From the NCBI GenBank assembly GCA_964421955.1, contig CAYQYU010000008.1:1-46722 (forward strand): a DNA stretch of 46,722 nt. Reading direction: 5' to 3'. Positions 6,837 to 36,540 of this stretch are shown one piece after another. A program made the translations under genes and the position numbers. Source of the DNA: an uncultured archaeon. Lineage in GTDB: Archaea; Nanohalarchaeota; Nanosalinia; Nanosalinales; Nanosalinaceae. The stretch's first letter is position 1; every line of letters starts with the position of its first letter. The notes beneath the pieces are model-generated. The model had not been told where the DNA came from. It searched no databases and saw only the letters and a list, made by a program, of their open reading frames with translations.

Positions 6837-7115
6837 TTAGACACTTGGTCCCTTGAACTTTCCGTCCTCCTTGTTACCGGTATTCTTGAACACTTCTTCC
6901 CTGGAGAGGCACTCTTCTTTCTCATCCTCTCTTGTTTCAGGTTCTACTTCTACGGGGTGGAACGCTGGCTCCACATCCTCAGTATCGACCTTTTCAAGCT
7001 GTGAGAACATATTTAGGATCTCCTCAAAGTCCTCTGTAAATTCGTCGGCCTCCCCTTCAGAGACCTCTATACGAGCATTTCTCGCAACTTGCAGGACTTC
7101 TTCTTTATCCGGCAT
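6837..7115 (-). CDS. gatC: Asp/Glu-tRNA amidotransferase subunit C
   Basis: VARNARIE...FEEILNMFSQLEKVDTEDVEP...RED...DGKFKGP; clustered with gatA/gatB. Confidence 0.92.
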   Translation of the reverse strand: MPDKEEVLQVARNARIEVSEGEADEFTEDFEEILNMFSQLEKVDTEDVEPAFHPVEVEPETREDEKEECLSREEVFKNTGNKEDGKFKGPSV

Positions 7116-7215
7116 AAACAATACTGGAAGTCGAAGTTTTTTGTAATCTCCCGCCGGAGGAATGTAGGTAGTGTTCAGAAGCTGTGAACAACGAAAACAC
7201 TAGACATAGGTAACA

Positions 7216-7223
7216 TTTATAAA
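7216..7223 (+). promoter_or_regulatory. Archaeal TATA box upstream of the UUGGGC hairpin element
   Basis: TTTATAAA about 25 nt upstream of the structured element starting near 7249. Confidence 0.55.
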
Positions 7224-7248
7224 CCAGTCTCGAAAATGGTTAACTACA

Positions 7249-7394
7249 AGACTACATTTTCACGCTTGGGCGCGTGAATCACAGATCCGATCAAACTCGT
7301 TTGGGCGCGAGTTGGATCACACGATTCGAATTGGGCTTCGAATCGAACGAAACGTGTAAGTTTGGGCTATTGGTCTAAGTTCTAGGGTAGAATT
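7249..7394 (+). ncRNA. Putative structured RNA (5' leader of ftsZ or stand-alone sRNA) with repeated UUGGGC-loop hairpins
   Basis: Three hairpins (7259-7278, 7294-7313, 7322-7345) have different stems and the same TTGGGC loop; a fourth TTGGGC lies at 7362 and a GGG-loop hairpin at 7378-7394. Confidence 0.65.
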
Positions 7395-7458
7395 ACCTAT
7401 GCCGGTTTAAAAAGGTTAGGTATAGCTCTACCGCACTCGCAAAAAAGGACGATACAAG

Positions 7459-8529
7459 ATGGAATCCATAATCGACAACTCGAAATCCACCACACAGGCG
7501 GAAACTCAAAATCTCGACGACGTAAAAGATGCTAAGATCCTAGTCGTAGGTGCAGGCGGAGCTGGGAACAACCAGGTAACCCGCATCCAGAAAAAAGATA
7601 TCCAGGGAGCAGAAACGGTAGCTATCAACACCGACAAACAGCACCTCGAAATCTCTTCCGCGGACCGGAAGGTTCTAGTCGGAAGAGAACTAACCAAGGG
7701 ACTTGGCGCAGGCGGACATCCAGAGAAGGGTGCCCGGTCAGTAGAAGAGAACCGCGCCGAACTCAGGAAGCTTTTCCAGGACGCGGACATGGTATTTGTA
7801 ACCGCGGGCCTCGGAGGCGGAACAGGAACCGGTGCAGCACCAGTACTTGCAGAGATCGCGAAGAAAGAGGACTGCATAGTAATAGGAACCGTAACAATGC
7901 CGTTCGAGATTGAAGGTGCGCGCATGTCGAAGGCAGAAGACGGCCTCTACAGGCTACGCCAACATGTGGACACCGCAATTGTAATTGAAAACGACCGGCT
8001 GCTCGATATTGCGGGAGATATGCCTCTCGACCAGGCATTCGGAGTAGCGGACGAGCTCATAACAACAATGATCAAGGGCGTTACCGAGACAATCTCGAAG
8101 CCTTCACTCGTCAACCTCGACTACGCGGACGTCAAATCCGTCATGAACGAAGGCGGCGTTGCAGTGGTAGGGTACGGAGAAAGCGACACCAAGAACAAGG
8201 GAGAAGAAGCAATACACGAAGCATTAAGCAACCCGCTACTTGAAGTCGACTTCGAAGGTGCAAACGGAGCGCTGGTACACATCGCCGGCGGCCAGGACCT
8301 CACGCTCAACGAAATCAACGATGTTGGTCAAACGGTACAGGGACGGCTGGATGATCATGCACAGGTCATCTGGGGCGCCCGCGTAAAAGAAGAACTACAG
8401 GGTAAAATCCAGGTTATCTCCATCGTAACAGGAGTAGAATCACCTTACGTCCTCGGAGATGTCGAGGAACAGGAGTCAGAGATGAAAGGAGACGTAAACG
8501 ACCTGGGACTGGAAGTGATGAACGGCTAA
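7459..8529 (+). CDS. ftsZ: Cell division protein FtsZ (FtsZ1-type)
   Basis: VGAGGAGNN, AINTD, GLGAGG, tubulin signature GLGGGTGTG, PFEIEG, NLDYADV, QVIWGAR. Confidence 0.98.
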   Translation: MESIIDNSKSTTQAETQNLDDVKDAKILVVGAGGAGNNQVTRIQKKDIQGAETVAINTDKQHLEISSADRKVLVGRELTKGLGAGGHPEKGARSVEENRAELRKLFQDADMVFVTAGLGGGTGTGAAPVLAEIAKKEDCIVIGTVTMPFEIEGARMSKAEDGLYRLRQHVDTAIVIENDRLLDIAGDMPLDQAFGVADELITTMIKGVTETISKPSLVNLDYADVKSVMNEGGVAVVGYGESDTKNKGEEAIHEALSNPLLEVDFEGANGALVHIAGGQDLTLNEINDVGQTVQGRLDDHAQVIWGARVKEELQGKIQVISIVTGVESPYVLGDVEEQESEMKGDVNDLGLEVMNG

Positions 8530-8600
8530 TTCCGAAAAGACGAAATTCGGAGACTTTCTGGGTTCCCAGAAAATCTTCGATTTTCGAAAACGATATTTAA

Positions 8601-8760
8601 CCGGGGGAGATCTCACGGGCACAACAATACTCCCTTCCCCCCCCCCAGCCCGGGGATCTCCTCCAGTTTACCTTTATATTCACCGGCAGGCCCTCCGCGA
8701 ACACCCGAAACTCCCCTCCCCCCCCCAACTGCGGAGGCTCGCCATTTTCACCTTATTTCT
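8601..8760 (+). ncRNA. Two tandem stem-loops with near-identical C-rich loops downstream of ftsZ (putative 3' UTR or sRNA element)
   Basis: Stems 8603-8664 and ~8685-8743 enclose ACTCCC(T/C)T followed by C10/C9 and A; each is followed by a similar TTT(C)ACCTT(T)AT tail. Confidence 0.55.
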
Positions 8761-8805
8761 TCCCATCAGGGAAAAACGTTTAATTCTGGTTGACAATCTG
8801 CAAAT

Positions 8806-9318
8806 GTGGCCAAGAAACAGTTCTACCTTAGAATATCCGCGGCACTTCTGCTTTCACTCTCAGCCGCAACAGTGCTATCCACCTCAGCCGAGTACGCGGG
8901 AGTAATCGCGGGAGCATCGGCTATATCCAGCCTGCTCTTGATGCGGTCTGCAGAGAGAACCTCCCGTATGGAAGGCCGCACAGACAGGATGAAGGTAGCG
9001 CTCACAAGTTCGACGGTTCTGTACGAACTTATCCTGCTGCTGGGCGCGGTATCTCTAGCGGTAGTTCCGAAGTACGCCGTCGCAATCGTTTTCGCAGCGG
9101 TCGCATTCACTGAAATCCTGCAGCTCGAGACCGAGCAGAAGCTCAGGACCGCTTTCACACCGGATATAGGCAGGGAGGGTCGAATAGTTGTGCTCGGTGC
9201 ATCGCTCGTGGCCTACAGCTTTAACACCTGGTTCCTGTTCTACGGCATCCTGTTCCTGGCGCTACTGGCGATCTACGACTCGCTCAGGCTGATCCACCAT
9301 ATAAACGACGAGATCTAG
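8806..9318 (+). CDS. Membrane protein, possibly a degenerate CDP-alcohol phosphatidyltransferase homolog
   Basis: About 6 hydrophobic segments; IGREGRIVVL resembles the G..GRxER loop of archaeal CDP-alcohol phosphotransferases; catalytic Asp motif absent. Confidence 0.55.
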   Translation: MAKKQFYLRISAALLLSLSAATVLSTSAEYAGVIAGASAISSLLLMRSAERTSRMEGRTDRMKVALTSSTVLYELILLLGAVSLAVVPKYAVAIVFAAVAFTEILQLETEQKLRTAFTPDIGREGRIVVLGASLVAYSFNTWFLFYGILFLALLAIYDSLRLIHHINDEI

Positions 9319-9516
9319 TCATCGAACTGGTAGCTCATCGAGCAACCTACATCGAACGTGTTTGGATCAACCTCGTTCTCGGTAGGAAGATAACTGGAAT
9401 ACGAGATCTCCAGACAAATATTGTGCTCCCCAGAGTCTTCAAAGTCAGGAAATACACTTACTAGAAGTATAGCTGTTTCCTCAAGTATTTAATTCTTGGT
9501 CGCCCCGGCTATTTTT

Positions 9517-10020
9517 ATGAAGGCTCCAATCTGTAACGTATGTCTCAAGAGCGACCAGCTGTGCTCAGCTTGCCAGGAGAAGCTCGATGAAGGCGAAATA
9601 GACGAGATCGACATCAAAATCTCCCGGATACTCCAGGAACTATCGAACGAGTATGGCTCTCTCAAGGACTCAGAGATAGAGAGAGTCTTCGACACCGAGA
9701 ACGTCGTCGTTATAGTTACCGCGGAAGGAGACGGCGCAAAAGTAGTGGGTAGACAGGGAGAGATAGTGAAGGAGCTTGCAAACCAGATCGATAAATCGAT
9801 TCGCGTGGTGGAACACGCATCGGACGACCTGGAAGTCATCAAGGGTTTACTCTCACCTGCGGAGGTGCAGTCGGTCAACACGGTTTTCGAGCCCGACGGA
9901 GAGTACAAGAAGATAGTAGTCGACGAGGACTACGAGGGCAAGATCAATCTGTCGCAGGAGGAGTTCGAGCACATCGTCGACAAGGTCACAGGAACCGATT
10001 ACAGGCTGGCGTTCGAGTAG
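9517..10020 (+). CDS. Archaeal NusA-like KH-domain protein with N-terminal Zn finger
   Basis: MKAPICNVCLKSDQLCSAC plus KH motif VVGRQGEIVKELA; start refined to ATG 9517. Confidence 0.85.
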   Translation: MKAPICNVCLKSDQLCSACQEKLDEGEIDEIDIKISRILQELSNEYGSLKDSEIERVFDTENVVVIVTAEGDGAKVVGRQGEIVKELANQIDKSIRVVEHASDDLEVIKGLLSPAEVQSVNTVFEPDGEYKKIVVDEDYEGKINLSQEEFEHIVDKVTGTDYRLAFE

Positions 10021-36033: not shown

Positions 36034-36230
36034 TCCTTCACCCCCCATAACACCGTTATGTTACCTGAGTTAAAAAAAGTTAATTGTCAGGCCCCTATGA
36101 CTAATAAACCAGTTAAAAACCGTTTCAAGATCCTGAAACGTCCTTTTAGAGCCCTTGATACTATATGACCCTGCCCGGAGAAATTTCAATATAGCTCAAT
36201 CTAATCCACGGACACCCGAGTCCGCAGTTT

Positions 36231-36356
36231 CTACTTCTTTCGCTCTATGCAGGTCCTGTGGCAGACGCCCTCGTCTGACTCAAAGAAGGACTGATCACTG
36301 TGAACACTGTTGCCACACACAAGACAGAAGCCGATCTGGCGTTGAAGCTCTGGCAT
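36231..36356 (-). CDS. 41-aa zinc-finger microprotein (CxxCG...HxxC; not in ORF track)
   Basis: MPELQRQIGFCLVCGNSVHSDQSFFESDEGVCHRTCIERKK*; GGGGGT SD upstream. Confidence 0.75.
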   Translation of the reverse strand: MPELQRQIGFCLVCGNSVHSDQSFFESDEGVCHRTCIERKK

Positions 36357-36540
36357 CTAACCCCCTACCCCCACTTAACATTTGTTATCTTCCCTAATAT
36401 AAACTACCCTGTACTCTTATCCACACAAAACCGCTCCAGAACAGGAAATTGTATTACAAACACACCCTATCTGGACAAAAAAGGCGTTTCTGTATTACAG
36501 AATCCGTGCCTGTTTAAATCTAGCGTCCCAACACAGCTGT

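Follow-up and report, generated by a model that had tools for sequence, protein, structure and literature searches.

Conserved G-loop and C-loop RNA hairpins bracket ftsZ in nanohaloarchaea and may act as two separate regulatory modules

An ftsZ gene of nanohaloarchaea was found to lie between two conserved RNA elements, an upstream array of hairpins that display the same short G-rich word in their loops, and a downstream region in which runs of C are held in large, stem-closed loops. The gene was analyzed in a 46,722-nt stretch of DNA (the window), which is contig CAYQYU010000008.1 (C8) of assembly GCA_964421955.1, an uncultured archaeon of the Nanosalinaceae whose genome (G000) comprises 922,649 bp, with 51% G+C and a completeness of 98.8%. 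The gene occupies positions 7459-8529 of the + strand and encodes a 356-aa protein that matches TIGR00065 with 398.6 bits and contains Tubulin and FtsZ_C domains. The two elements probably belong to a long ftsZ leader and a 3′ untranslated region (UTR), respectively. They are read here, tentatively and with somewhat less than even confidence, as two separate cis-regulatory RNA modules, of which the G-loop array would be a landing pad that offers several sites to a factor acting in trans; this factor would most likely be a protein.

The conservation of the elements was assessed in 57 distinct nanohaloarchaeal ftsZ loci and five Methanosarcinales outgroup loci. The nanohaloarchaeal loci were drawn from 40 relatives and from named records (including Nanohaloarchaea, Nanosalina, Nanohalobium, Nanosalinarum, Nanoanaerosalina, and Asbonarchaeum), the ftsZ of the records being 72-89% identical to that of the window. 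Hairpins with GGG in the loop were present between −330 and −60 in all 57 loci, compared with an average of 0.58 in shuffled sequences and 0-1 in the outgroups. Each leader carries one to six such hairpins (one in 2 loci, two in 9, three in 14, four in 25, five in 5, and six in 2), with a mode of four, in keeping with a multi-site design of several hairpins that share one loop motif on a single RNA. Among 95 strictly defined loops, the loop word was TTGGGC in 81, GTGGGA in 8, and TTGGGA in 3, with GGGC or GGGA as the constant core. A covariance model built from hairpins 2 and 3 of the array (the two-hairpin model, R1) gave one match per genome in 45 of the 49 other genomes of the family (two matches in G052); wherever the position was known, the match lay just upstream of ftsZ. 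R1 detected 47 of 70 genomes of the phylum; it is too specific for the other four families, where a match was obtained in 1 of 20 genomes. Pairs of TTGGGC were located at ftsZ in four of the five complete genomes, with one stray match. The G-loop array is a single-copy, ftsZ-linked element. In G000, the interval 7266-7367 of the window is the sole cluster of at least three TTGGGC words within 150 nt, although the word occurs 128 times in the genome; this interval holds four of the seven copies in the window, a total that is below the 17.2 expected and thus rarer than chance. Hairpins with a TTGGGC loop number four genome-wide against a mean of 3.0 for permuted hexamers, indicating that their clustering, rather than their number, is unusual.

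Downstream of ftsZ, a C-motif (C4+ N0-2 C4+) was found in 48 of the 53 loci for which 150 nt or more of sequence beyond the gene was available. The five loci that lack a strict motif all lie outside the family of the window, and three of these have shorter runs of five to six C. Stems of at least 10 bp enclose 33 of 72 C-motifs, compared with 23 of 720 shuffled controls. The first-pass annotation, made from the letters of the window, had proposed that two RNA elements bracket ftsZ, and this part of its proposal is borne out; the elements are structured and occur together, both being present in 48 of 53 loci.

Evidence for RNA structure was obtained from an alignment of 46 loci (A1), in which five helices with 35 pairs, taken from the window sequence, were evaluated. 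Pairing was maintained in 82.3% of the alignment cells, compared with 73.9% after shuffling and 27-46% when the partners were slid, and 23 pairs change on both sides, a number that none of 500 shuffles matched. Hairpin 1 (7259-7278) consists of a 7-bp stem (7259-7265/7272-7278) with the loop UUGGGC at 7266, and showed both-side changes in six of seven pairs in A1. Hairpin 2 (7289-7318) has a 7-bp stem (7294-7300/7307-7313) with a U-G closing pair, the loop UUGGGC at 7301, and an additional outer GAUC/GAUC extension; both-side changes were found in all seven pairs in A4, an alignment of hairpins 2 and 3 fitted to the model. The 9-bp stem of hairpin 3 (7322-7345; 7322-7330/7337-7345, loop UUGGGC at 7331) changes on both sides in nine of nine pairs, and A4 as a whole does so in 16 of 16 pairs, with 87.6% of its cells pairing. 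Hairpin 2 was also predicted independently by RNAalifold from a further alignment (A2). The ratio of G-U pairs to A-C positions is 47:20 in the stems of the leader and 53:27 in those of the 3′ hairpins, which favors the + strand. The folding z-score of the 3′ region is −4.86 on the + strand versus −1.89 on the − strand, and that of the leader is −3.54 on the + strand. Because the stems covary and the G-U pairs favor the + strand, both elements are structured RNA. The arms of the C-loop hairpins share no sequence that MAFFT can align. The loops are fixed and the arms covary, a pattern opposite to that of a DNA-binding site. With covarying helices, sense-strand orientation, and a fixed position before one gene, the array has the features of a cis-regulatory mRNA leader.

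The extent of the leader was deduced from its promoter and its downstream helices, all of which are on the + strand. A distal TATA box, TTTATAAA (P1; 7216-7223), is nearly invariant in A1 and lies 35-50 nt ahead of hairpin 1 in relatives, and 52 of 57 loci have a TATA-like word between −204 and −345 relative to the ATG. By the usual archaeal spacing between TATA box and start, transcription would begin near 7247, approximately 12 nt ahead of hairpin 1. Upstream of P1 lies an inverted pair, TGTTCA-N7-TGAACA (7172-7190, no strand assigned), which is a candidate transcription-factor site. Relatives hold two to four TGAACA-type words in this region, and at least two TGAACR/YGTTCA words precede the TATA box by no more than 130 nt in 35 of 43 family-level loci, compared with 0.14 expected from the genome-wide density. 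These repeats precede P1 and not P2, the proximal TATA-like word. Beyond hairpin 3, a fourth UUGGGC (7362-7367) is flanked in the window by no stem of at least 5 bp, but many relatives have this word in a hairpin. The next feature is a conserved palindrome, UUCUA-GGG-UAGAA (7380-7392), which may be leader helix 4 or a protein site; 90% of its cells pair with zero both-side changes, and an RNA helix is therefore indistinguishable from a DNA site. Helix 5 (7397-7425) is formed by CUAUGCC and GGUAUAG around the loop GGUUUAAAAAGGUUA, within which the proximal TATA-like word is located, and changes on both sides in five of seven pairs. Other families have a hairpin around UUAAAA(A)G with stems unrelated to those of helix 5. 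Since helix 5 covaries around the proximal word and other families keep a hairpin there with unrelated stems, this word is probably transcribed. Its enclosure in helix 5, together with the lack of a U-run between the G-loop array and ftsZ, suggests that the whole stretch 7247-7458 is the ftsZ 5′ UTR.

The 3′ region begins right after the ftsZ stop codon with hairpin 0 (8541-8586, +), whose 22-nt arms are 86% complementary and which ends in GAUUUUCG; it was found in a subset of relatives only and may be an alternative 3′ end. C-loop module 1 (8590-8664, +) consists of the AU-rich word ACGAUAUUUA, a stem (8603-8614/8653-8664), and the core ACUCCCUUCCCCCCCCCC at 8629-8646 in the loop. Module 2 (8671-8743, +) comprises the AU-rich word CCUUUAUAUU, a stem (8692-8699/8730-8737) with outer pairs 8685-8690/8738-8743, and the core ACUCCCCUCCCCCCCCC at 8710-8726. 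The only runs of eight or more C in the window are at 8637-8646, followed by AG, and at 8718-8726, followed by AA. Each run lies on the 3′ side of a large stem-closed loop carrying ACUCCCYUCCCCCCCCC, and the modules are a tandem pair, with 17-nt cores that are 94% identical and 81 nt apart, and with stems that differ. Module 2 is followed by a pyrimidine- and U-rich tail, AUUUUCACCUUAUUUCUUCCC (8744-8765, +), which is likely the 3′ end of the ftsZ transcript and a putative terminator; a U-rich stretch after the last C-loop hairpin is also found in relatives. The AU-rich words ahead of the C-loop hairpins were considered as promoters of a free C-rich RNA and rejected, since transcription would then begin within the hairpin, and since the spacing is disrupted by loop insertions in relatives.

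Taken together, these features suggest that the mRNA of the nanohaloarchaeal ftsZ, an FtsZ1-like paralogue, would have a long leader and a 3′ UTR, both of them folded. Starting at the conserved promoter, the leader would present three to six GGGC-loop hairpins, mostly UUGGGC, followed by two more helices before the start codon, and the 3′ UTR would contain one to three hairpins, each with a large loop whose 3′ side bears a CCCCUCCCC-type core. A protein that reads the GGGC loops, with several copies bound, could set the translation or the lifetime of the ftsZ message by the logic of CsrA/RsmE, and the 3′ hairpins, which belong to a small dispersed family present at other loci too, would serve as a general module resembling the anti-Shine-Dalgarno sequence. 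In the CsrA/RsmE leaders and the CsrB/RsmZ sponges, several hairpins carry the same short G-rich loop word and are bound multivalently. The ftsZ leader shares this layout of many hairpins with one loop, but its word is GGGC or GGGA, not GGA.

Several points weigh against the landing-pad reading. No candidate GGGC-binding protein emerged, and CsrA (PF02599) was not found in G000, whereas three control genomes scored positive. RNAalifold recovered hairpin 2 alone on A2 and no pairs on an alignment of hairpin 3 (A3), in which MAFFT shifts UUGGGC and CUUUGGGCAAAG length variants out of register. The structure of A1 was derived from the window and A4 was fitted to the model, and both thus lean towards structure. 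The minus strand of the leader folds as well as the plus strand (z-score −3.51), without strand specificity. The transcript ends and the transcription of the array were deduced from sequence, and the proximal word UUUAAAAAGG could be the true ftsZ promoter, in which case the array would be a separate RNA. A 3-bp complementarity of G-run and C-run on the same transcript exists everywhere, and at least five contiguous pairs are possible in 15 of the 38 loci in which both loops are strictly defined, a count that has no chance control.

The last point touches the central idea of the first-pass annotation, namely, loop-loop kissing between UUGGG in the 5′ loops and CCCCAG or CCCCAA in the 3′ loops. 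The loop sequences are as it described, and both window partners carry unpaired complementary motifs; the pairing of UUGGG with CCCAG or CCCAA comprises 5 bp, including one G-U, at −6.1 and −6.2 kcal/mol. Comparison across relatives did not support the idea. Of 73 motifs, 38 have UU as the two bases after the C-run and only 7 have AA, AG, or GG, whereas the G-loop remains UUGGGC in 81 of 95 cases regardless. Since the purine pair after the C-run is not conserved, most genomes are left with GGG:CCC alone, the only general complementarity, of 3 bp and approximately −4.4 kcal/mol. No compensatory change was seen across relatives, and the C-loops of the clade with GGGA loops show no corresponding change. 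The flanks of the two motifs (UU..C and ACACU..U..UU) are each conserved and mutually non-complementary, and the conserved U within CCCCUCCCC, as well as the UU and C around GGG, have no partner. The full complement, GCCCRR, is not conserved anywhere in the transcript, reaching at most 12 of 46 loci in any 30-nt bin. A duplex fold of the whole leader against the whole 3′ UTR was uninformative (−70.2 kcal/mol versus a shuffled mean of −86.5). Independent occurrence of the two elements, which had been named as grounds for abandoning the idea, applies in part, since C-loops occur at conserved loci without G-loops; at ftsZ, both are found together in 48 of 53 loci, and the other 5 have G-loops but no strict C-motif. 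Weak multivalent contacts between G-loops and C-loops in molar salt are possible. Separately, pairing of the helix-5 loop with a 3′ AAAACCUAUAUU word was considered and rejected, as no compensating change was seen by eye in Nanosalina-type loci.

Two precedents lend some credit to pairing between such loops. The 3′ UTR of Staphylococcus aureus icaR pairs through a UCCCCUG motif with its own 5′ UTR (PMC3868564), and this arrangement of a C-rich 3′ motif and a G-rich 5′ partner on one mRNA is the nearest kissing precedent. In icaR, the motif pairs with the Shine-Dalgarno region over an uninterrupted complementary stretch, whereas the nanohaloarchaeal G-loops are placed 90-200 nt ahead of the start codon, conserve only 3 bp, and belong to an archaeon. 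C-rich loops of RNAIII form loop-loop contacts with rot mRNA, two contacts being needed (PMC2837412). These resemble the ftsZ case in having C-rich motifs in hairpin loops at several sites, and differ from it in that the RNAIII loops are fully complementary to their targets, while the conserved nanohaloarchaeal flanks mismatch. A looped message, closed in cis by C-loops of the 3′ UTR that pair with the GGG loops of the leader and tune translation or decay, would find several sites on each side in addition to these precedents and the 5-bp match in the window. The unconserved extending bases, the unpartnered flanks, and the unmatched GGGA clade make it decidedly doubtful, and the co-occurrence of two elements on one gene is expected anyway. 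Pairing in trans, by which C-loop RNAs of several loci (3′ UTR fragments or small RNAs) would bind the GGGC loops, or the leader would act as a sponge, so that division is coupled to C-loop genes, is unlikely as well, but is the most probable of the alternatives. C-loop hairpins occur at four or more conserved loci per genome, the leader offers three to six G-loops, and a known class of regulatory RNA uses unpaired C-rich motifs as its seed (PMC2837412). The pairing is as weak as in cis, however, the C-core suits GGAGG-type Shine-Dalgarno sequences far better, and the existence of a C-loop RNA as a free molecule has no support. Next in probability, and still improbable, is an RNA-RNA circuit in which dispersed C-loop hairpins (core CCCCUCCCC), located in the 3′ UTRs of ftsZ, a small gene for an RHH regulator, and other transcripts, would dock via many weak G-C kisses on the three to six GGGC loops, be stabilized by the salt-rich cytoplasm, and set the amount of FtsZ through the pool of C-loop RNA.

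The remaining alternatives do not invoke the C-loops. The array might be a separate small RNA that is transcribed from P1, ends before the proximal TATA-like word, and acts in trans as a protein sponge like CsrB/RsmZ, with ftsZ transcribed from UUUAAAAAGG approximately 45 nt before the ATG. Two TATA-like words are indeed present, the position of the proximal one, −35 to −52 in most loci, is workable for a promoter, and an array of identical loops is the classic design of a sponge. On the other hand, there is no U-run terminator ahead of ftsZ after the array, which in turn is never found apart from this gene, and the proximal word sits in the loop of the covarying helix 5, a hairpin that other families keep with other stems, implying read-through; this possibility is as doubtful as that of the looped message. 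A potassium-dependent G-quadruplex, in which at least four GGG tracts of the leader fold in competition with the hairpins in the high-salt cytoplasm, would be permitted by the four or more GGG runs in 51 of 57 leaders. It is very improbable, given that the covariation backs hairpins centered on each GGG and that 6 of the 57 leaders have just three runs; moreover, spacers of 25-35 nt that are unable to fold alone disfavor such a structure. Least probable of all is a role of the repeats as DNA, whether as protein sites, a replication origin, or cruciforms. The regular spacing of approximately 30-35 bp, the equal folding of both strands, and the palindrome without covariation would fit such a role, but a DNA site has conserved arms and a free spacer, whereas in these repeats covarying arms surround a fixed loop, and G-U exceeds A-C by about 2:1 on the + strand. 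A mimic of the tRNA anticodon loop, T-box-like UGGN pairing, and a replication origin were also considered and dismissed, as the loop length, the CGGGCA variants, and the covarying arms do not fit.

The C-loop, unlike the single-copy array, is not confined to ftsZ. The sequence CCCCTCCCC is present in two to five copies in each of five complete genomes, and of the 18 copies in total, seven follow ftsZ, two follow a 48-aa RHH gene, and nine are elsewhere; four of these nine are orthologues of a single hairpin, which in G000 reads GGUGA-UCCCCUCCCCAGAGGC-UCACC, and another two adjoin nrdR. Orthologous C-loop hairpins were thus identified at a second locus in G000 and four complete genomes, and near nrdR in G000 and two genomes. 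In G000, C-rich hairpin loops are located at approximately 17440-17470 of contig C9 (− strand), C2:34300-34345 (adjacent to nrdR), C4:67760-67800, and C16:3900-3935, of which those on C9 and C2 have orthologues in other complete genomes. The 48-aa RHH_1/CopG gene (L085; C6:49326-49500 in G000) is followed after its stop codon by CCUUCCCCCCCCUCCCCU and a U-tract, and a C-motif follows the stop codon in all 20 loci with an RHH protein of at least 70% identity. The U-tract is present after this motif and no enclosing hairpin was evident, as judged by eye and by folding of the G000 locus only. The protein, a possible CdrS homologue, has Pfam RHH_1 as its sole match (21.7 bits). C-loop loci away from ftsZ have no G-loop array. 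The core CCCCUCCCC contains CCUCC, as does the 3′ end of the 16S rRNA of G000, GGAUCACCUCCA, where it is the core of the anti-Shine-Dalgarno sequence, and the C-core matches GGAGG-type Shine-Dalgarno sequences far better than UUGGGC. The C-loops resemble the C-rich seeds of staphylococcal regulatory RNAs and the icaR 3′ UTR, and if they have a role in RNA pairing, GGAGG-type sites are more plausible partners than UUGGGC.

Elsewhere in the window (36451-36500), a TATA-like word is flanked by a pair of palindromic boxes, (T)GTAWTAC(A). The same pair was found in G000 at C1:10171, C1:123889, C1:147089, C3:10752, C9:17528, C11:17123, and C13:17492, giving eight loci in all, with a spacing of 40-41 nt (41 nt at seven of the eight); a looser form is located ahead of the 48-aa RHH gene. 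The set looks like the promoters of one regulator. The boxes fall in a gap of approximately 490 nt (36049-36540) without a convincing open reading frame and without an Rfam match, which also holds CUAACCCCCUACCCCCAC at 36355-36375, outside any hairpin and upstream of the boxes.

The closest solved structure to the FtsZ of the window carries the name ‘FtsZ homolog 1’. A second ftsZ of G000 (C5:57490), 50% identical to the window copy, has neither a G-loop nor a C-loop element, and its upstream region is short and ordinary. Upstream of the window ftsZ lies gatC, in divergent orientation, and on its 3′ side are a gene for a membrane protein without a family match (8806-9318) and a gene for a NusA-like KH protein (9496-10020). 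The KH protein has a Cys-rich N-terminus with two CxxC motifs and a KH_5 domain, and scores 147.4 bits against PRK06418, under the cutoff of 175 bits. In 41 of the 57 nanohaloarchaeal loci, and in none of the five outgroups, the KH gene is found no more than 1.5 kb from ftsZ, and its product is an obvious candidate for testing, with no link to either motif so far. One record of the locus set (L036), titled as a Colwellia polaris metagenome-assembled genome, holds a nanohaloarchaeal ftsZ locus whose flanks are identical to those of L009, and its bin label is probably wrong. A search of the whole window against Rfam release 15 returned no match at the gathering score, and within 7100-8850 just three chance-level matches (E 1.1-7.2); neither element is in Rfam. 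Among the papers listed in literature searches, judged by title and the opening of the abstract, none dealt with RNA elements at the ftsZ of nanohaloarchaea.

Apparently, little is in print on the control of division in host-dependent DPANN archaea. A conserved, single-copy leader of approximately 210 nt, with a repeated loop word at the main division gene in the genomes that R1 detects, could serve as bait for the factor that reads it, and the two elements provide new RNA motifs for family libraries. The dispersed C-loop family hints at a wider layer of post-transcriptional regulation in these genomes of approximately 1 Mb.

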